DNA from: a virus
Taxonomy: Duplodnaviria > Heunggongvirae > Uroviricota > Caudoviricetes
Length of the DNA stretch: 22,496 nt
Reading direction: 5' to 3' (one strand)
Virus record (IMG/VR): IMGVR_UViG_3300008114_001632
Part shown: positions 6,227-16,919 of the stretch, piece after piece
How the letters are laid out: each line of letters begins with the position of its first letter
Numbering within the stretch: position 1 is the first letter of the stretch
Translations under genes and position numbers: made by a program
The notes under the pieces: model-generated
Seen by the model: only the letters and a program-made list of their open reading frames with translations
Told to the model about the DNA's origin: nothing
Database searches by the model: none

Positions 6227-6232
6227 TATTTA
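6227..6232 (-). promoter_or_regulatory. TAAATA late-promoter-like motif upstream of nrdA
   Basis: CTAAATA overlapping the upstream stop codon, ~31 nt before the nrdA ATG. Confidence 0.5.
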
Positions 6233-9777: not shown

Positions 9778-10164
9778 TTACAATTTGTCGTCTAAGTTAG
9801 TTGCTCGTTTAGCCATAGCGCCTACAGATGCTCCAGCATTTGATCTGTCACCTTGAGGTACATCTGATGGTGCTTTTTTAGTCTTAGGTTCTATTCCTCG
9901 TTCACTGAAGTTTGCTATTAGAGCTTTTATTCTAGGATCTGTGTCATAGGCTGCTTTGAAAGTATCGTAATGAAACTCTTCAGAATCTACATTCTGCATT
10001 AATTTATTAAGATCAAGATTCATCGCACCTGATTTAATTTCATTTGGTCTGGGCTTATTAAAATGCAAATAGGCAGTAGTACCTTTACGGTCTGCACTGC
10101 CTATTACTGTTCTTAAAACTTGTATTAGTTTTGTTGAGTCAATTGATGTTTCAGCTTCAGTTAC
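9778..10164 (-). CDS. 128-aa -1 frame extension (VTEAETSIDSTKLIQVL...NLDDKL), probably expressed as a fusion to 10161-10994
   Basis: Frame is open from 10164 through the TTG at 10068 used by the ORF track; no ATG/GTG/TTG or clear SD lies between the slip site and 10068. Confidence 0.7.
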   Translation of the reverse strand, partial: VTEAETSIDSTKLIQVLRTVIGSADRKGTTAYLHFNKPRPNEIKSGAMNLDLNKLMQNVDSEEFHYDTFKAAYDTDPRIKALIANFSERGIEPKTKKAPSDVPQGDRSNAGASVGAMAKRATNLDDKL

Positions 10165-10994
10165 TTTTTTTTTGAACTTAGTAATGTGCCTAATCTGCGG
10201 GAAAACTGTATTGATTCGCGCTTTGCACGACCAGCTTCTTCAGCACCACCTGCTGCTGGAGCGGCTGTTGCAAATTCATCTTCATCATCTAGAGTTGGTT
10301 CCATGTCATCGCCTATATCTCCGCCCATGTCTGGCAATGGCTCTTCATCGCCTACGTCTGCGCCCATTGTGTCTGTCGGCTCAGCTTCACCTGTTAGTTG
10401 TCCAACACCTTGTGTTAGTGCAACACGAGTAGTTTCCATTGCAGCATACAATGATTCTAGTGCAGGCTTAACTGAGTTAACAAATGCGTCTGCCTGTTCT
10501 TGGCCCATTTCATCACGCACTGCGTCAGCTAGGTCAAGCATAGATTCTGTCTGCATTTCTGCTGTGTCTTCCATCCAACCAGTAAGACGATCAACCATAT
10601 CTTTAGCTGCCATTACTAGCTCTGCATGATCTTCTGCGCCTTCAACTATTCTAGAATCTTCGTCTACAATTTTAGCAATTTTCTTTTTCTTTTCTTCTTT
10701 TTTACGCTTTTCATCAGCAGTCTTTTTAGGATCAGCTACATCTTCGCGCTCTAAAATAGCAGCATTTAAAACGTCTAGGAATAGTTTTGATTTTTGGTAG
10801 CTTTCGTTCTTAAGTACAGAACCAAAACTTTCATTTGTTTCTACTTGCGAAATCTTTGTGCGCAGTCTGTTTCGAGCATCCTGTAGTTGCTCAAGCGTAA
10901 AAGCACCGATATCGATTCTAGTGCCGAATCTTTTAGCTAAACTTTCGTTTAGGCTTTTAGCTGTCATTGGTTTAGATATTTCTCTAATATTCAT
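10161..10994 (-). CDS. Acidic, helical 277-aa protein, probable prohead core/scaffold-like or internal head protein
   Basis: MNIREI N-terminus, several [LIV]-x-E sites (SLNES, IVEGA), coiled-coil character and an acidic low-complexity linker; function is an inference. Confidence 0.6.
   Translation of the reverse strand: MNIREISKPMTAKSLNESLAKRFGTRIDIGAFTLEQLQDARNRLRTKISQVETNESFGSVLKNESYQKSKLFLDVLNAAILEREDVADPKKTADEKRKKEEKKKKIAKIVDEDSRIVEGAEDHAELVMAAKDMVDRLTGWMEDTAEMQTESMLDLADAVRDEMGQEQADAFVNSVKPALESLYAAMETTRVALTQGVGQLTGEAEPTDTMGADVGDEEPLPDMGGDIGDDMEPTLDDEDEFATAAPAAGGAEEAGRAKRESIQFSRRLGTLLSSKKK
10164..10170 (-). other. Candidate -1 slippery heptamer A_AAA_AAG (within an A9 run, 10165-10173)
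   Basis: Reads TCA AAA AAA AAG TAA in frame 0; the heptamer is correctly phased and immediately precedes the stop. Confidence 0.7.
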
Positions 10995-11027
10995 ATTAAC
11001 TCTTCCTAGTTTGAATAGCGTACACTT

Positions 11028-11033
11028 TATTTA
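11028..11033 (-). promoter_or_regulatory. TAAATA late-promoter-like motif
   Basis: CTAAATA in the 10995-11039 intergenic gap, 33 nt before the ATG at 10994. Confidence 0.65.
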
Positions 11034-11039
11034 GTCTTT

Positions 11040-11465
11040 TCATCCTAAGATGATTCGATCTAGCTGTTGTTTAGCTTCTGCAGTTCTGGATCTTGCTATG
11101 TCGTAACGCATTTCAAGTATGTCTTTCCTGTTATAATCTTTGGTAGTTTTAATGTTGTGCTTGTAAAATACACAATCATTATACCATTTTTGTATGTCTT
11201 GATCAAGGCTCATTATTCGTGTTTTATGATCAGTCCCAGAAGCCATTGATTTTGCTAGGGCTATTGCTGAAGTTTTGCAAAAAGTTTCAGCAATCTGCGC
11301 ATTGTACTCGCAATCAAAAATCCTAAAAAAACCTCGTTTGTTTTCTCTAACAACATATTTTCCTATGCGGATACTGTTTCCTTTTTGATATGGAAACTTA
11401 GCAGGATCAATCTTTACATCCAACAGTTCTTCTAGGTCTTGTATTAGTTTAATTTTGTTAATCAT
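11040..11465 (-). CDS. Hypothetical protein, 141 aa
   Basis: Overlap-coupled ORF in a co-oriented run. Confidence 0.75.
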   Translation of the reverse strand: MINKIKLIQDLEELLDVKIDPAKFPYQKGNSIRIGKYVVRENKRGFFRIFDCEYNAQIAETFCKTSAIALAKSMASGTDHKTRIMSLDQDIQKWYNDCVFYKHNIKTTKDYNRKDILEMRYDIARSRTAEAKQQLDRIILG

Positions 11466-11658
11466 TTTTAATCACCATAACAGAACCGTCGCTCCTTACT
11501 TTACTTATAAGACTTTTGCGCACTAGGTTTTCTATTATGAAACGATCACGTTCGTTGAATTCGTGTAGATAGGTTGCAGCTTGGATGCTGTTGTATACAC
11601 GAGCTTCGTCGTTGCTCATATGTATTGTAAACGAACTGATCAGTTGGTTGATTTTCAT
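11458..11658 (-). CDS. Hypothetical protein, 66 aa (MKINQLI...)
   Basis: ATGA-coupled to the upstream ORF. Confidence 0.7.
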   Translation of the reverse strand: MKINQLISSFTIHMSNDEARVYNSIQAATYLHEFNERDRFIIENLVRKSLISKVRSDGSVMVIKND

Positions 11659-11912
11659 ATTTCGTCGTCAAGCTCTACTTTATCGCCCGGTTTAATTGTT
11701 GTGTTTGGTTTAGACATAGTTGCTTGCCCGGGCTTCTGCTGTGCATTTGTACTTAATTTAACTTTTCCAGTAGCAGGATCTTTAGCTAGAGCTTGCGGAT
11801 TTTTCTTTAGATCAATCACAGTTTTAGTACCGTCGCCATTATCAATTTCTGCACTTTGATTAGGCATCACTTTAGTAACTTTTGAGGGCTGCATTACTTC
11901 TGAAATTTTCAT
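11655..11912 (-). CDS. Hypothetical protein, 85 aa (MKISEVM...)
   Basis: TAATG-coupled; carries the shared N-terminal motif. Confidence 0.75.
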   Translation of the reverse strand: MKISEVMQPSKVTKVMPNQSAEIDNGDGTKTVIDLKKNPQALAKDPATGKVKLSTNAQQKPGQATMSKPNTTIKPGDKVELDDEI

Positions 11913-12211
11913 TATATTTTCCTTGCTCTGTTTGTTGAATGTCTTGGTTTATTTAACTTCTTAAGTCTAAGAGATGCAGAATTTGATCGTTTTGTAAGTT
12001 TAGATTTAACCTTCATCGATCCGCCCTTTTTCTGTTTTGTTTGTTTTAGGGTAACACTCTTTTGTATGTCTATGGGCTTGTTGCATGCTGCTGGAGAACT
12101 CATAACTCTGCCCTTGCGAGGACCATATGTGCAGCGATACTTACGAACAGTTTTATTTCCCTTGCGGCCCCAAGTGTTTCCACCAGCTTCAAATAGTTCT
12201 CTAATAAACAT
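11912..12211 (-). CDS. Highly basic small protein, paralog 1 (99 aa)
   Basis: Lys/Arg-rich; WGRKGNKTVRKYRC..G.R.GR aligns with the adjacent ORF. Confidence 0.8.
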   Translation of the reverse strand: MFIRELFEAGGNTWGRKGNKTVRKYRCTYGPRKGRVMSSPAACNKPIDIQKSVTLKQTKQKKGGSMKVKSKLTKRSNSASLRLKKLNKPRHSTNRARKI

Positions 12212-12212
12212 A

Positions 12213-12500
12213 TCAGTGTTTCCTAGTTGATTTATTAAGCTGTTGAACTCTCTTGCTAGCTGAATTTACTCGCTTAGTTCTATTTGACTTTCTTGACAAT
12301 CTAGCACCCATACGTGCTTTTGTAACTTTTAATCTTTTGCTTTTCTTAAGATCCGGTGGTGCAAAACATTGACTCATGTTGGCTACAATACGCCCGTGCC
12401 GACGACCGCCCATGCATCTATATTTGCGAACGACCTTTTTTCCGCTACGTGCCCAGACTTGTTTCTCGTCAAGGCTTATGGTAAGTTCTCTTAATAACAT
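12213..12500 (-). CDS. Highly basic small protein, paralog 2 (95 aa)
   Basis: WARSGKKVVRKYRC..G.R.GR aligns with the adjacent ORF. Confidence 0.8.
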   Translation of the reverse strand: MLLRELTISLDEKQVWARSGKKVVRKYRCMGGRRHGRIVANMSQCFAPPDLKKSKRLKVTKARMGARLSRKSNRTKRVNSASKRVQQLNKSTRKH

Positions 12501-12505
12501 GCAGT

Positions 12506-12512
12506 TATTTAT
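12506..12512 (-). promoter_or_regulatory. ATAAATA late-promoter-like motif 5 nt before an SD-less ATG
   Basis: ATAAATA-actgc-ATG; a TCGGGA-ccta-TCCCGA hairpin (12512-12527) lies directly upstream. Confidence 0.7.
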
Positions 12513-12536
12513 CGGGATAGGTCCCGACTAAAGATT

Positions 12537-12857
12537 TCAGATTCCGAAGAATTTAAAAACAGTTTGAATAGTGAGATTGCCGGTCCATCCAAGACCTGCG
12601 ATGAATGCTAGAGATACCAAGCCGTATTTTAACAACTTGTCTTTGGCTTTTTCCATCTCTGCTATTTTAGCGGATAACTGTTTGTGTTGTTGGCAGCTGT
12701 CTTCATGCATACTGTGAAGCTGTGCTTTGAGCTCATCGCCTGTTCTGTCTAGACAATCGTGAATGTCCCTAACATCGATCTTGAGATCATCTATTTTTTC
12801 GTCTAAGTTTATTACCTTAGTTTCTACTATACCAAGTCGTTCTACTGTTGTAGCCAT
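12537..12857 (-). CDS. Coiled-coil protein with C-terminal hydrophobic anchor (XhlA/holin-like architecture)
   Basis: Heptad-rich N-terminus followed by YGLVSLAFIAGLGW; GGAG SD. Confidence 0.55.
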   Translation of the reverse strand: MATTVERLGIVETKVINLDEKIDDLKIDVRDIHDCLDRTGDELKAQLHSMHEDSCQQHKQLSAKIAEMEKAKDKLLKYGLVSLAFIAGLGWTGNLTIQTVFKFFGI

Positions 12858-12940
12858 TTTAGGCGTTCTCCGTGTATATTAAGTCAAGGTCCTTTCGGAC
12901 ATGTGTTTAAGTTGAAATCGCCTGTTGTGTGCCTTGTGTA

Positions 12941-13327
12941 TTATTTATCTAGTTGTTCAAAAATAATGTTTGTGTGATTAGGGTCTTGCGTTCTAAATAC
13001 GTTGGAGTCAAACTTTGCATCTTCTGTAAGGTCTGCAATAAATGGTACTAAATCAAAATCGTTAAGCATCATGTCTACTGATAAACTAGCTTCAGCTTCT
13101 ACATAAAACTCCGCAGTCCACACAGTTTTTTTGCCCTTAAAACTAGATCCAAATATCTTTGCATCTTCTTTAGAAACTTTTATATAAAAGTCAGTAGCGT
13201 TGGTGCGTAACCCTATGGTATTATAAAGGGTCATAAAGTTTGCTTGTTGTCTAGTAAGCTGGGGATCATCACCTTTTCTAGCTCGTGTTTCTGTTATATC
13301 AACAAGTGTCTTGATTTTAAATTTCAT
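12941..13327 (-). CDS. Hypothetical protein, 128 aa
   Basis: Clean ORF downstream of a terminator with its own TAAATA motif. Confidence 0.8.
   Translation of the reverse strand: MKFKIKTLVDITETRARKGDDPQLTRQQANFMTLYNTIGLRTNATDFYIKVSKEDAKIFGSSFKGKKTVWTAEFYVEAEASLSVDMMLNDFDLVPFIADLTEDAKFDSNVFRTQDPNHTNIIFEQLDK
12942..12948 (-). promoter_or_regulatory. ATAAATA late-promoter-like motif
   Basis: Overlaps the stop of the 128-aa ORF; ~85-nt UTR containing a GTCC-GAAA-GGAC hairpin (12889-12900). Confidence 0.6.
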
Positions 13328-13331
13328 CTAG

Positions 13332-13337
13332 TATTTA
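13332..13337 (-). promoter_or_regulatory. TAAATA late-promoter-like motif 4 nt before an SD-less ATG
   Basis: TAAATA-ctag-ATG, directly after the terminator. Confidence 0.7.
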
Positions 13338-13345
13338 ACAGCCGT

Positions 13346-13372
13346 AAAAAAGCCCACTGTAAAAGTGGGCTT
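13346..13372 (-). terminator. Rho-independent terminator
   Basis: AAGCCCACT-tttac-AGTGGGCTT stem followed by a T run on the minus strand. Confidence 0.9.
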
Positions 13373-13394
13373 AGTCTTCCCATCCCGGGGAATA

Positions 13395-13754
13395 TTACAT
13401 TGCGTACAATGAACTTGGCTCTGTTACAGTTAGTGTACCACCTGCTGTGAATGTCCAAACACCGCTTGATGTTAGGGAACCAGCACCAATGATACGACCA
13501 GCACGGATTGCTAGTGCATCAACATCCAATGCATGACGATCACCAAATGCAAGGATAGCAAGGCCATCACTCTTAACTTGGAATACTGCTGAAGTTGTAC
13601 CAATTTCGTCGGTTACTGGTGTTGCTGAAGTTGCTGTTAGAGCAACTGCGCCATCGGAACCGCTCAATACATATTTGTATACGGTTTGTTGGAATGTACG
13701 TTGTACTGTACCTAATGCTACTGCTGTTGGGTTAACTCTTGTTACTGAAGGCAT
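13395..13754 (-). CDS. Small Ala/Thr/Val/Gly-rich protein, probable abundant virion structural (decoration-like) protein, 119 aa
   Basis: Own TAAATA motif, 5' hairpin, strong AAGGAG SD and own terminator suggest high late expression; function inferred. Confidence 0.55.
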   Translation of the reverse strand: MPSVTRVNPTAVALGTVQRTFQQTVYKYVLSGSDGAVALTATSATPVTDEIGTTSAVFQVKSDGLAILAFGDRHALDVDALAIRAGRIIGAGSLTSSGVWTFTAGGTLTVTEPSSLYAM

Positions 13755-13810
13755 TTTATTTCTCCTTTATCAAAAATGCACATCTTCTCGCTCCGAGAAG
13801 TTGTTATAAT

Positions 13811-13816
13811 TATTTA
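13811..13816 (-). promoter_or_regulatory. TAAATA late-promoter-like motif, followed by a CTTCTCG-gag-CGAGAAG 5' hairpin (13784-13800)
   Basis: Seen directly in the 13755-13840 intergenic region. Confidence 0.75.
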
Positions 13817-13840
13817 GCACTTTGATTAAAAAGAGGCGAA

Positions 13841-14173
13841 TTAGCTCTTGTTTTTGGCTCTTTTATGCAGTAACTTGAGCTGTTGAATGTAGGCTGTACC
13901 AGAATTTACTATGTCTTCTACCATTTCAATGATAGGCATGTATCCTTCTACGAATGTACTAGGTACACTTTTACCTTCTTCTGCAAGCTCAACAAACTTT
14001 GTAGCTTTCATAGCGTTTTCTAATCCAACTAGGTAACCATAAAGAGCAACACGGCGTTGTTTAGAGAGACGCTCAACACGCCTACCTCGTATTCTGTCTA
14101 GGGCGTCTTCGTCAAGGTGTTGTTCAACAAGTCCTTCTTCGTACAGACCCTTAATGAAATTCATGTCTTTCAT
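13841..14173 (-). CDS. Hypothetical protein, 110 aa
   Basis: Coupled ORF; LYE/LVE/LDE sites near the N-terminus. Confidence 0.75.
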   Translation of the reverse strand: MKDMNFIKGLYEEGLVEQHLDEDALDRIRGRRVERLSKQRRVALYGYLVGLENAMKATKFVELAEEGKSVPSTFVEGYMPIIEMVEDIVNSGTAYIQQLKLLHKRAKNKS

Positions 14174-14174
14174 A

Positions 14175-14561
14175 TTATAGATATTTCTTTACAAACAATG
14201 CTGGAATTTCGTGATAGTCTTTGATGTCAAGAAAATCAGTTAAACCATTTGATGTTTGAATATCCTTAGTAAACTGCATTCTTACCTGCGGTTTTACTTT
14301 GTCAGTGGTTGCTAGCATACGTAATATTTGAGCTTGGTCTGCTGTAACTTTAAAAGTTTTGCCGTCGTCGGTAGTAACAGTGTTTAGAGGCTTAGGATTT
14401 TCTTGACTATCTAATACTTTTCCTAGTTGATTAAACATTGTTTCATTTTTAAAGCCGGGTGCATCTGCACCATCATCTTCTGGTCTAGCATCAAAGTCAT
14501 CTAGTACTTCTGCTGTGATTTGATTTAGGTGATTTTCAAATTCTTTTAGATAACTATTCAT
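14175..14561 (-). CDS. Hypothetical protein, 128 aa
   Basis: TAATG-coupled; acidic N-terminal region. Confidence 0.75.
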   Translation of the reverse strand: MNSYLKEFENHLNQITAEVLDDFDARPEDDGADAPGFKNETMFNQLGKVLDSQENPKPLNTVTTDDGKTFKVTADQAQILRMLATTDKVKPQVRMQFTKDIQTSNGLTDFLDIKDYHEIPALFVKKYL

Positions 14562-15820
14562 TAATCTCTCTCCACTGCTCTGTTAGCTTTTGTAAAAAAT
14601 TCCCTTGGAACAAGTTTGATATCGCCTTCAGGATGAGCTAGAACGTAACCTTCACCGCCGGCTTGTCCGTTAATACTTGCTTCTATGTCAGCACCGTGTT
14701 GATCTAGCTGTCCAATGATATCATCTTTAACACGCATAATTCCATCAACTACTTGCCATAGAGCATTAAAGCCTGATACATTCTTGTTGATCCACTCAAT
14801 CACTTTACGTTTCTTTGCTTCGCTAACTTTGCTAGATGCAAGCCAGCCTGCAAAGTCTTGTGCTAGATTGTTAATGCCTGTATCTACTTTTGAGTTTAGG
14901 TATGTGTAAAAGATTGTTGGTAAGTCGGTAAGCTGTCCTGCTTTGAGTTGTTCTGCATTTAACAGAGTATCCATAGCTTTAGCGTTTTTATTGATTAATT
15001 GTCTTAGCTGTTTTAAACTAGAGTCGTCAACTTCTGGAGGACGTTGTGCTGTTACAGAAGGTACTACTAATACTTCAGGACCGTTAACTATACTGTCAAT
15101 CTCGCCCGGCTTTAATGCACGTTCATTACCAATCTCATCAACGAATCTATGTACTACAATTCCTGTAGTACTTGCGCCAATGCGCTTGCCTATATCAGAA
15201 TTCTTATCTACAGCATATTGTACAACGTTAGGTTTGAATACATAGCGGCCGTCTTGTTCTGGAGGTGTTGTAAAATACAACAGGTCTCCTTTAAAGTAGC
15301 CTCTAAAGTTTTCGTCTGTAGCTCTTTCAAACTTATCAAATATATTTTTCATGTTACCTGCAAACTTTACGTATCCAGGATTTTCTCTGTTCTTGCCGCC
15401 TGAACGATTCAAGAACATGTCTTCTAATTCTTCTGCACTCTTTGATTTTCCGTCGTAACCTTTAGCAGTGAAACCACTCTTGTCCGTAAGGATAAAATTA
15501 CCTTCTTCATCACGTCCAAAAATAACTGCCGGACTACCATCCCACTTAATGGTAACATTCTTATGACCTCCGGTCTCTAATTTCTTTAGACTTTCTAATG
15601 CGCGAACTGCGCCTGCACTACCTTCCCAAAATATTAAATCTTCTGCGTGTTGTATGCGAGCACCTTCATCTAATTGCAACGACTCGTTGGTCTTTTCACC
15701 TACAAGTTTTCCATGCAAGGGATGATCAGTACGCCCCGCTTTGGCTTTTGGCATTTTATCTTTGCCTTTGGCCTGACCCTTAGAGCCAGTAGCATATTCT
15801 TTAAATTCGTAGAATCTCAT
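14561..15820 (-). CDS. Covalent-nucleotidyltransferase (RNA/DNA ligase or capping enzyme-like) fold protein, 419 aa
   Basis: Motif I TIKWDGSP (KxDG, 15536-15547), motif III-like FKGDLLY, motif IV-like GEGYV, motif V-like IKLV. Confidence 0.65.
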   Translation of the reverse strand: MRFYEFKEYATGSKGQAKGKDKMPKAKAGRTDHPLHGKLVGEKTNESLQLDEGARIQHAEDLIFWEGSAGAVRALESLKKLETGGHKNVTIKWDGSPAVIFGRDEEGNFILTDKSGFTAKGYDGKSKSAEELEDMFLNRSGGKNRENPGYVKFAGNMKNIFDKFERATDENFRGYFKGDLLYFTTPPEQDGRYVFKPNVVQYAVDKNSDIGKRIGASTTGIVVHRFVDEIGNERALKPGEIDSIVNGPEVLVVPSVTAQRPPEVDDSSLKQLRQLINKNAKAMDTLLNAEQLKAGQLTDLPTIFYTYLNSKVDTGINNLAQDFAGWLASSKVSEAKKRKVIEWINKNVSGFNALWQVVDGIMRVKDDIIGQLDQHGADIEASINGQAGGEGYVLAHPEGDIKLVPREFFTKANRAVERD

Positions 15821-16605
15821 TAGCGCATCCTAATGCCGTTGCCTAGCATAACAGTACTGTTTAGATTGATGCCAGCTAATTGTTTTAGCCGTGCAATGTC
15901 TGTACTTTCAGGCAATGTTAAATTATCTCTAGCAAATGTTTCTTTTGCATCTGCTACTAATTGTTCGTAGTTAGGCAAGCTCTTAGCCTTGCCAATAATA
16001 GTTTCAACACTGTCAAGGTCTTCGACATGTGCTGTGGGACCTAACAGCTTAACAGCAATCTCAGCAGGGACTTTAGAAATAAGTTCATTAGTGTCTCTGT
16101 CAAGTAGTCCTACATTAGCACTCCATTTGAATCCGTTTGCTTTTGCAATACTTGCCATCAGTATCTGTTTATGTACACCCTTGTAAGGACTCTGCTCATC
16201 ACTGGATCCACGTAGACTCCAGGTCATCCATTGTGGGTCACCAAACATTAGATCTGTTTGTACAAATCCGCTTGCTTCATTGCCACTAATAGGTGTTAGG
16301 AAGTGTACAGAGATACCGCTTTTCTTGATGTATACTTTAGGATCTTTACCGTTGGCCTTACACCAAGCTGCTAATTTTTGTACTAGTTCTTCTTTGGTTA
16401 CTTCTTCTTGATTAACTGCAATGTCTAGGTCTCCAGAAGTTTCTTTGCGACCAGTGCTACCTAATTTAAAATCCTTGTGTGGAATGCCTGTAATTTTTTC
16501 AAGCCAAGCTAGAGTAGGATCAACATCGGCTCTGTTGATGCGCTGTGTTAAAGGTTCCTTAGTCTGTGGATCCTTAAAGATGTTACCGCCTTCATTCAAT
16601 CTCAT
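15820..16605 (-). CDS. DNA polymerase beta-superfamily nucleotidyltransferase, 261 aa (start moved to MRLNEGG)
   Basis: LGSTGRKETSGDLDIAV fits hG[GS]x8-13DhD (16423-16461); third Asp candidate in VQTDLMF; the ATG at 16605 overlaps the upstream ORF by 14 nt, against 83 nt for the ORF-track start. Confidence 0.75.
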   Translation of the reverse strand: MRLNEGGNIFKDPQTKEPLTQRINRADVDPTLAWLEKITGIPHKDFKLGSTGRKETSGDLDIAVNQEEVTKEELVQKLAAWCKANGKDPKVYIKKSGISVHFLTPISGNEASGFVQTDLMFGDPQWMTWSLRGSSDEQSPYKGVHKQILMASIAKANGFKWSANVGLLDRDTNELISKVPAEIAVKLLGPTAHVEDLDSVETIIGKAKSLPNYEQLVADAKETFARDNLTLPESTDIARLKQLAGINLNSTVMLGNGIRMR

Positions 16606-16855
16606 TTTGTTTACTCTCAATAACTTTTTGAATGCCACGCTTAAATTTACGAGGGTCGCCGCTCTTAATTGCATTAATGAATCGACGTTCTAGTTCTCCA
16701 GCAGTTTCAGCTTCGTAGGTGTTTGATATGCGATTAAGTAAGTTAATAGCACTTTCTATGATATTGCTGCCTGATGTTTCTATTAGAAGATCGTTATCCT
16801 TGGTACGACCAAGATTATTAAGTTCTTCTAATATGCTTCTAGTTCGCTTTCTCAT
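16592..16855 (-). CDS. Hypothetical helical protein, 87 aa
   Basis: GGAG SD and TAAATA motif upstream. Confidence 0.8.
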   Translation of the reverse strand: MRKRTRSILEELNNLGRTKDNDLLIETSGSNIIESAINLLNRISNTYEAETAGELERRFINAIKSGDPRKFKRGIQKVIESKQNEIE

Positions 16856-16874: not shown

Positions 16875-16880
16875 TATTTA
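16875..16880 (-). promoter_or_regulatory. TAAATA late-promoter-like motif inside a 9-bp RBS-occluding hairpin (16857-16888)
   Basis: TGTTACACT-AAATAATACACTGG-AGTGTAACA-A-ATG. Confidence 0.75.
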
Positions 16881-16919
16881 GTGTAACATGCACAGAAAGA
16901 ATATGTACATATGACAGAC

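Follow-up and report, generated by a model that had tools for sequence, protein, structure and literature searches.

A coupled polymerase X-like and DUF6267 ligase-like gene pair in giant phages as a candidate fill-and-seal repair module

We asked why a phage would encode a polymerase-like and a ligase-like protein as one translationally coupled unit, and on what such a pair might act. The question is raised by a 22,496-nucleotide (nt) stretch of viral DNA, referred to here as the window, which corresponds, in reverse complement, to the initial 22.5 kb of a 111,581-bp IMG/VR contig from an uncultured phage (IMGVR_UViG_3300008114_001632). CheckV puts the completeness of this contig at 32%, so the whole genome would measure ~350 kb. 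Within the window, two minus-strand genes encoding proteins of 261 and 419 amino acids (aa) meet at a TAATG, one base of which is common to both genes. An earlier note, made from the sequence alone, had recognized this coupling correctly and had read the products as a pol-beta-type nucleotidyltransferase (NTase) and a ligase- or capping-like enzyme. Structure prediction and the comparison of relatives refine that picture. The first protein is predicted to be a minimal family X DNA polymerase (PolX), and the second belongs to the DUF6267 family and resembles a ligase. We judge it moderately probable that the two form a fill-and-seal module for strand-break repair, with gapped or nicked duplex DNA as the favoured substrate and with a ligase that would be targeted to the phage head. 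The features on which the argument turns are listed here in window coordinates.

15820..16605, minus strand: PolX-like gene, 261 aa, starting MRLNEGG
16429-16431, 16423-16425 and 16252-16254, minus strand: predicted catalytic D59, D61 and D118 of the PolX-like gene
14561..15820, minus strand: DUF6267 (Pfam PF19782) ligase-like gene, 419 aa
15545-15547, minus strand: motif I K92 of the ligase-like gene
15659..15820, minus strand: ligase-like leader, residues 1-54, made up of the tag MRFYEFKE, a basic linker and L-D-E52 ahead of the catalytic domain
14699..15025, minus strand: helical insertion, ligase-like residues 266-374, between motifs IIIa and IV, with invariant N309 and K365

Predicted folds of the two proteins

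The 261-aa protein carries the NTase motif G49-S50-T-G-R53-KETS-G58-D59-L-D61, followed by a third aspartate, D118. This is the GSTG-x5-GDLD signature with a third Asp that the earlier note had pointed out, and it holds across relatives: the GSTGRKETSGDLD motif and D118 are conserved in the PolX-like family, and in an alignment of 45 family members, with identities down to 28%, conservation reaches at least 90% at D59, D61, D118 and the GS loop. We modeled the protein with AlphaFold2 using 62 homologues (mean predicted local distance difference test score, pLDDT, 87). In the model, D59 and D61 lie on strand 59-65, and D118 lies on strand 114-122. When the model was compared to the PDB with Foldseek, the best 50 listed matches were all family X at probability 1.0, and the best 22 matches in Swiss-Prot were all PolX, again at probability 1.0. 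Alignments to the Swiss-Prot models pair residues 21-199 with Pol beta residues 148-335, which comprise palm plus thumb. An exhaustive structural search with VIA-align returned family X enzymes as all of the best 10 chains (155-178 residues, Z 7.1-10.2), among them Pol beta (Z 10.2 over 164 residues), the Pol X of African swine fever virus (ASFV; Z 8.6 over 156/176), Leishmania Pol beta, TdT, Pol lambda, Thermus PolX, Pol mu and Deinococcus PolX. Terminal uridylyltransferases (TUTases), CD-NTases, poly(A) polymerase and CCA enzymes reached Z values of at most 6.9 with VIA-align, with only ~90 palm residues aligned.

With only ~20 residues before the palm, the protein has neither the 8-kDa domain (dRP lyase/5'-phosphate binding) nor the fingers, and a C-terminal helical extension (residues 200-243) follows the palm and thumb (~21-199). 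Because palm and thumb align and the 8-kDa and fingers parts are missing, we take the 261-aa protein, on its predicted structure, to be a minimal family X DNA polymerase composed of a palm and a PolX thumb. The pol-beta-type fold proposed earlier stands, and the generic NTase class gives way to family X. Judging from alignment ends and motif spacing, R22, S50, R53 and G58 would be the counterparts of Pol beta R149, S180, R183 and G189, the triphosphate ligands of that enzyme, making R22 and R53 candidates for this role.

The assignment was made through structure. Neither Pfam nor PHROG gave a match to the protein, its 62 relatives have no Pfam match at E up to 10, and the PF14792 profile, at the same limit, returned nothing from the genome. 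PDB sequences searched with profiles, from three family alignments for the two proteins together, gave no PolX match; the human immunodeficiency virus integrase matches from these searches are due to chance and span a 20-residue stretch. The family is large, with 1341 clusters at 50% identity in a full HMMER search, many of them of 600-1300 aa. A longer, 284-aa NTase frame starting from 16674 was ruled out as the gene because relatives begin at M-x-[IL]-x-EGGN.

The 419-aa protein matches PF19782 (DUF6267) at E 6e-35, with 121.7 bits against a gathering cut-off of 27 and coverage of profile positions 4-374 of 376; it also falls in phrog_455, of unknown function. DUF6267 proteins number in the thousands across aquatic giant phages and cyanophages, and our literature search found no paper on them. 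The earlier note had reported KWDG, GD, EG and K motifs in ligase order, and these can now be assigned to motifs I (K92-W-D94-G95), III (G178-D179), IIIa (F195/Y202), IV (E390-G391) and V (K402/R406), the last reading K-L-V-x-R instead of K-x-K. The order is canonical for ligases, and D179, F195/Y202, E390-G391 and K402 lie on beta strands of the model. In an alignment of 37 sequences from the giant-phage and cyanophage clades (26-32% identity), the motif residues K92, D94, G95, D179, F195, Y202, E390, G391, K402 and R406 are invariant, as are H58, E60, D61, G174, P197, H224, N309, K365, V393 and V404.

The AlphaFold2 model of this protein has a pLDDT of 81.7, with low values over residues 1-54 (block means 32-60). 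Foldseek matches to ligases were weak, the best at E 0.07. With VIA-align, 24 of the best 25 matches were RNA ligases, DNA ligases or, in one case, a capping enzyme (Z 4.7-6.8, 144-206 residues). To our knowledge, an OB domain is present in all known DNA ligases. The OB domain with motif VI of DNA ligases and capping enzymes is missing here, as the model stops 15 residues after motif V, and the only additional module is the helical insert at 266-374 (~110 aa). From the model we place DUF6267 in the covalent nucleotidyltransferase superfamily, as a diverged branch without an OB domain and with a predicted accessory architecture nearer to that of RNA ligases than of DNA ligases. As with the polymerase, sequence profiles did not make this connection: for 64 DUF6267 members searched at E up to 10, DUF6267 was the sole Pfam match, with none to PF01068, PF01653, PF09414 or PF09511, and DUF6267 profile searches of PDB sequences gave no ligase match. 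Profile alignment with hhalign against the canonical ligase described below, the Atu_ph07 324-aa and Phosso 411-aa proteins and PA5oct gp257 also gave nothing, single-sequence templates of this kind having low power.

We considered whether DUF6267 could be the sole ligase of the phage, and rejected this. The same contig encodes, outside the window, a second ligase-superfamily protein, a canonical ATP-dependent DNA ligase (G000:C1:76324-77640, corresponding to L086:1048-2364; PF01068 E 9e-24, phrog_114 E 1e-93). DUF6267 is therefore not the replicative ligase, and a specialized role is to be expected. Three metagenomic DUF6267 proteins of ~561-566 aa (P0086, P0100 and P0101) have an added Cu/Zn superoxide dismutase domain (PF00080), which hints at a connection to oxidative damage.

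Gene linkage and the choice of substrate

We examined gene order in the 80 IMG/VR loci that a scan with the PolX-like family returned. In 77 of them a DUF6267 gene lies directly downstream of the PolX-like gene on the same strand, and in two of the remaining three the sequence ends less than 520 nt beyond the PolX-like gene. Adjacency is kept even where ligase identity falls to 30-33%. The two genes are also fused: a 642-aa PolX-DUF6267 protein occurs in two contigs from different samples, and 13 of 20 scanned multidomain PolX-like representatives also contain DUF6267, placed before or after the PolX-like domain. The remaining partners among these 20 are HIGH-motif cytidylyltransferase-like domains (5), HAD/NT5C-like phosphatases (3), Amidoligase_2 (2), Tad3 (1) and ART-PolyVal (1). 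Tad3 is a Thoeris inhibitor, and ART-PolyVal is an ADP-ribosyltransferase of multi-domain 'polyvalent' phage proteins. The relatives with Tad3, ART-PolyVal, Amidoligase_2 and HAD/NT5C-like partners are P0374, P0461, P0373, P0383, P0389 and P0363. The long multidomain proteins suggest polyproteins of injected counter-defence and repair modules.

Pairing extends to a second kind of ligase-like protein. The PolX-like gene of Atu_ph07, like that of Phosso, adjoins another ligase-like gene (KLDG...EGVV, with a weak match to PF09414 RNA_ligase), the order being the 87-aa homologue (see below), a ~240-aa protein, the KLDG ligase-like protein and then a PolX-like protein starting MGG. As the partner differs, the pairing of a PolX-like with a ligase-type protein recurs with non-identical partners. 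The ligase-like and PolX-like genes overlap in both phages (Atu_ph07 L004:4013-5810, Phosso L092:6025-8077), their order is reversed relative to the window, and both are leaderless. Alignment by hhalign of the PolX-like family with PTIM40_181, PA5oct gp258 and Phosso 445 gave nothing, again against single-sequence templates of low power.

These results bear on whether the pair acts in repair at all. Capping, AMPylation and cyclic-nucleotide synthesis had been among the activities first considered for the locus; the KxDG enzyme would then cap RNA or adenylylate a protein, and the pol-beta enzyme would make a nucleotide signal or AMPylate its target. Capping enzymes do occur low in the ligase-like match list (Z 4.1-5.0), as do CD-NTases for the NTase, at Z 5-5.9 and below the PolX matches. 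However, capping enzymes require the OB domain with motif VI that is missing here, CD-NTases and TUTases match the palm only whereas PolX enzymes match palm and thumb, and the repeated fusion of the two domains suits consecutive steps on one substrate. None of these activities gained support from our analysis, and we regard such a function as very improbable.

The simplest account of co-translation and frequent fusion is that the two enzymes carry out consecutive steps on one broken strand, and the PolX thumb argues for a templated duplex as substrate. We propose that the PolX-like protein would extend a 3'-OH within a gap by one or a few nucleotides, and that the DUF6267 protein, having adenylylated itself on K92, would close the remaining nick. 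The earlier note had named tRNA or other RNA ends first among the possible targets of a two-enzyme module; the two linked enzymes of that proposal are retained, while the thumb shifts the preferred substrate to gapped or nicked duplex DNA. By analogy with end joining by bacterial LigD, it is also possible that ribonucleotides are filled in before a nick with a 3'-ribo end is sealed.

The RNA alternative is a serious rival. If the pair worked in RNA repair as RlaP does with RNA ligase, the NTase would restore 1-2 nt at the 3' end of a tRNA or other RNA that host anticodon nucleases had cleaved, and DUF6267 would religate it. DUF6267 resembles RNA ligases in lacking an OB domain and having a helical accessory module, and its best structural matches include Naegleria RNA ligase, T4 Rnl2, REL1, Rnl1 and Trl1. 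The Atu_ph07 and Phosso partners match Pfam RNA_ligase, if weakly, and the HAD-phosphatase-like fusion partners are compatible with end healing. RlaP and RNA ligase are moreover an established pairing in giant phages, in which RlaP adds 1-2 nucleoside monophosphates (PMC7824862, PMC12776372). Yet PF10127 (RlaP) matched neither the genome nor 62 family members at E up to 10, and the conserved block contains no kinase or 2',3'-cyclic phosphodiesterase gene. The second domain of the NTase is a PolX thumb, a part that RNA-specific pol-beta NTases do not have, and they align at the palm only. We consider an RNA repair function unlikely.

Cyanophage relatives offer a separate view of DUF6267. The complete genomes of S-PM2 and P-TIM40 contain no PF01068, PF01653 or PF09414 ligase and no PolX-like gene, and gp30 is missing from marine cyanophages (PMC2993671). 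Both phages encode a leaderless DUF6267 protein between gp41/mazG and gp61, which makes DUF6267 a candidate, by sequence, for their 'missing' DNA ligase. It is fused (S-PM2d138, L001:5992-7767) or adjacent (PTIM40_182/183, L002:6001-8265) to a HIGH-motif cytidylyltransferase-like enzyme.

Transcription unit, leader and packaging

The pair sits in a conserved block of minus-strand genes, whose other members are as follows.

16875..16881, minus strand: candidate T4-late-like promoter CTAAATA, 20 nt before the start of the 87-aa gene, heading the operon (read directly)
16592..16855, minus strand: 87-aa gene, phrog_11854 'virion structural protein' (E 8e-15), first in the conserved block
14175..14561, minus strand: 128-aa gene, joined at 14561 to the ligase-like gene through another TAATG; homologue in 47 related loci
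13841..14173, minus strand: 110-aa gene, closing the conserved transcription unit; homologue in 45 related loci, order kept

The 87-aa gene directly precedes the pair in 79 of the 80 loci, and in the window its end overlaps the PolX-like start by 14 nt. In PA5oct and fHe-Yen9-04, its homologues carry a virion structural annotation; an atlas search with the protein itself returned only its own unnamed cluster. The 128-aa and 110-aa products have no PHROG match. The PolX-like and ligase-like genes are co-expressed from a single operon headed by this virion-protein homologue, and expression is probably late. The exact T4 late consensus TATAAATA was not found anywhere in the window, and MTAAATA is not enriched in number (14 in total, 14.9 expected), with 8 of 11 minus-strand copies directly upstream of start codons. 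Minus-strand (A/C)TAAATA copies at 6227, 8416, 11028, 12506, 13811, 16875 and 18066 lie 20-35 nt before starts and are oriented with the genes. This placement, in the absence of any excess in number, is compatible with putative T4-late-like promoters. The contig also encodes ribonucleotide reductase, a PD-(D/E)XK exonuclease, a PAAR protein and virion-protein homologues.

Both proteins had been credited with capsid-targeting leaders. For the ligase-like protein, a leader of the ~50 removable-looking residues described is borne out: residues 1-54 have low pLDDT, and family conservation begins at A54/R55. Giant-phage DUF6267 proteins start with M-[RK]-[FLAYIV]-x-[ED]-[FIL] in 110 of 119 sequences, and all 119 have [LIVMF]-x-E no more than 8 residues before the conserved domain. 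Tag and boundary are both missing from all 119 cyanophage DUF6267 proteins, which start M-A-K-N-T-H-L-E-H-L-E-D. Between tag and domain, the linker varies from 14 to 205 aa across the giant-phage homologues. The closest relatives keep a linker motif, K-G-x-D-K-M-P-x-A-K-x-G-R-x-x-H-P-L-x-G-K-L-V-G-E (window 15700-15780, residues ~14-40), in a part where the model is poorly defined; this stretch may have a function as a peptide and not serve simply as a spacer. For the PolX-like protein, the idea of a leader did not hold up to the same extent. PolX-like proteins of other clades have the tag followed by h-h-x-E-GGN or start directly at MGG, suggesting that the mature N-terminus lies at G6, and in the window only MRLNE stands before the invariant GGN of the folded domain.

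The arrangement in the ligase-like protein resembles the capsid-targeting sequence (CTS) of T4 cargo. T4 gp21 cuts after L/I-x-E, and ten N-terminal residues of IPIII suffice for head targeting (PMC9026906). In the window protein, L-D-E52 precedes ARIQHAED, which fits a protease site of T4-type cargo by sequence. Five cultivated relatives encode a protease of the gp21 type: Atu_ph07, Phosso, PA5oct, Vibrio phage 2.275.O and S-PM2. Genome-wide, 10 open reading frames (ORFs) have tag-like N-termini where 1.9 are expected, a count that none of 2000 shuffles reached; as the tag pattern was chosen after inspection of the data, this enrichment is indicative only. Six of the 10 ORFs lie within window positions 10161-15820, and one of these six encodes a 277-aa protein homologous to a virion structural protein. 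Two basic minus-strand paralogues of 99 and 95 aa (11912-12211 and 12213-12500) start MFIRELFE and MLLRELT and have R-K-Y-R-C in common; kept in 29 related loci and without a family match, they are candidate tagged internal proteins. The CTS-like tag and the [LIVM]-x-E boundary lead us to propose that the ligase, produced together with the polymerase from the single, probably late, operon, would enter the prohead by means of its tag, be trimmed by the prohead protease and be injected with the DNA. Packaging of the ligase-like protein in the head is plausible, falling a little short of probable.

Several points weigh against the proposal that the pair is a fill-and-seal module with a head-targeted ligase. 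The PolX-like protein lacks the 8-kDa and fingers parts with which most PolX enzymes grip gapped DNA. Neither protein is linked by a sequence match to the PolX or ligase families, the assignments resting on predicted structures and short motifs, and the structural match of the ligase-like protein to ligases is modest (Z at most 6.8). Its lack of an OB domain, together with best matches that include RNA ligases, favours an RNA or hybrid substrate. On the side of packaging, the tag pattern is the post hoc one noted above, and S-PM2 DUF6267 is annotated as hypothetical, not structural. Profiles for gp21 and gp23 gave nothing on the 32%-complete contig, a result that is uninformative since the search covered five partial contigs, including four related fragments. 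Finally, PA5oct gp256 (446 aa, L093:6119-7459) aligns with the whole DUF6267 profile at an hhalign probability of 49% (E 1.7e-4, including EKIDG and EGYV), making it a distant homologue, and is not among the proteins annotated as found in the virion by mass spectrometry (MS). In PA5oct, the next two genes after the 87-aa homologue encode structural proteins confirmed by electrospray ionization tandem MS (ESI-MS/MS), and gp256, three genes downstream of that homologue, adjoins them.

The gp256 annotation would suit a pair that acts in the cytoplasm, in repair or as an accessory to replication, and is never packaged, with the N-terminal motif serving as a translation-start or stability feature of late genes. 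So would the position of the leaderless cyanophage DUF6267 in the replication module, the lack of leaders in the Atu_ph07 and Phosso versions, and the block's place after primase and helicase genes in PA5oct, Phosso, Atu_ph07 and a Vibrio phage. Such a role would not readily explain why the [LIVMF]xE boundary always accompanies the tag, exactly at the domain edge, and why both are gone in cyanophages. Nor would it explain an identical tag on unrelated proteins, including the 277-aa virion structural homologue, or linkers of 14-205 aa, as a disposable propeptide would show. We view a purely cytoplasmic pair as somewhat doubtful.

The fill-and-seal proposal can be taken further, to a head-loaded polymerase and ligase kit that mends nicks and gaps before any phage gene is expressed, with leaderless DUF6267 acting as the cyanophage DNA ligase. 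Sunlight or oxidation in the virion and host nucleases at entry would be sources of such damage. This extension is tentative, and we hold it to be rather unlikely.

Relation to known systems and significance

The closest precedent for the pair is found in ASFV, whose Pol X lacks the 8-kDa and fingers parts and has been described as the only known such case (PMC5537341). ASFV combines this 174-aa palm-and-thumb PolX with a viral ligase for filling and sealing (PMC5537341), like the pair proposed here. Unlike in ASFV, the host here is a bacterium, sequence similarity to ASFV Pol X is undetectable and the polymerase-like protein is extended at the N-terminus (residues 1-20) and, by helices, at the C-terminus (200-243). 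A DUF6267 protein without an OB domain takes the place of a canonical DNA ligase; it bears a CTS-like leader, and translational coupling or fusion ties its gene to that of the polymerase. PgVPolX of Phaeocystis globosa virus is a biochemically proven polymerase-lyase-ligase fusion for base excision repair (PMC5537341). It joins polymerase X and ligase in one polypeptide, as do many relatives here, but it has a full Pol beta core, a dRP lyase and an NAD+-dependent LigA-type ligase, whereas our pair combines a minimal polymerase with a ligase from an unrelated, uncharacterized branch. Bacterial LigD, a ligase, polymerase and phosphoesterase of non-homologous end joining, likewise joins polymerase to ligase, and some relatives here have phosphatase-like partners. 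In contrast to our pair, the LigD polymerase is primase-type and its ligase has an OB domain, and we saw no Ku gene in the block.

Modules of RlaP (PF10127) and Rnl also place a pol-beta-superfamily NTase beside a ligase-superfamily enzyme, adding and then sealing (PMC7824862, PMC12776372). They differ in that the NTase here has a PolX thumb and no PF10127 match, and in that the ligase is DUF6267, not Rnl1 or Rnl2. The leader compares best with T4 IPI-III and Alt, in which a short N-terminal tag common to unrelated proteins is followed by [LIVM]-x-E at the border of the mature protein (PMC9026906). Here, the putative cargo would be repair enzymes, the tag reads M-R-F-x-E-F, the linkers can be long, and packaging and cleavage are predicted from sequence. 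What sets the pair apart from all five systems is that its PolX comes from a bacteriophage, that the ligase-type partner is a DUF6267 protein lacking an OB domain and that a CTS-like leader is present.

Our literature search found no description of a bacteriophage family X polymerase, and a 2022 review of phage DNA polymerases names ASFV as the sole virus for family X and lists no phage enzyme (PMC8775771). PA5oct could serve as an experimental entry point. If the proposed activities hold, DUF6267 would constitute a new OB-less branch of the ligase superfamily, and T4-like cyanophages without a recognized ligase would gain a candidate. Head-packaged repair enzymes would then represent a new class of injected phage cargo.

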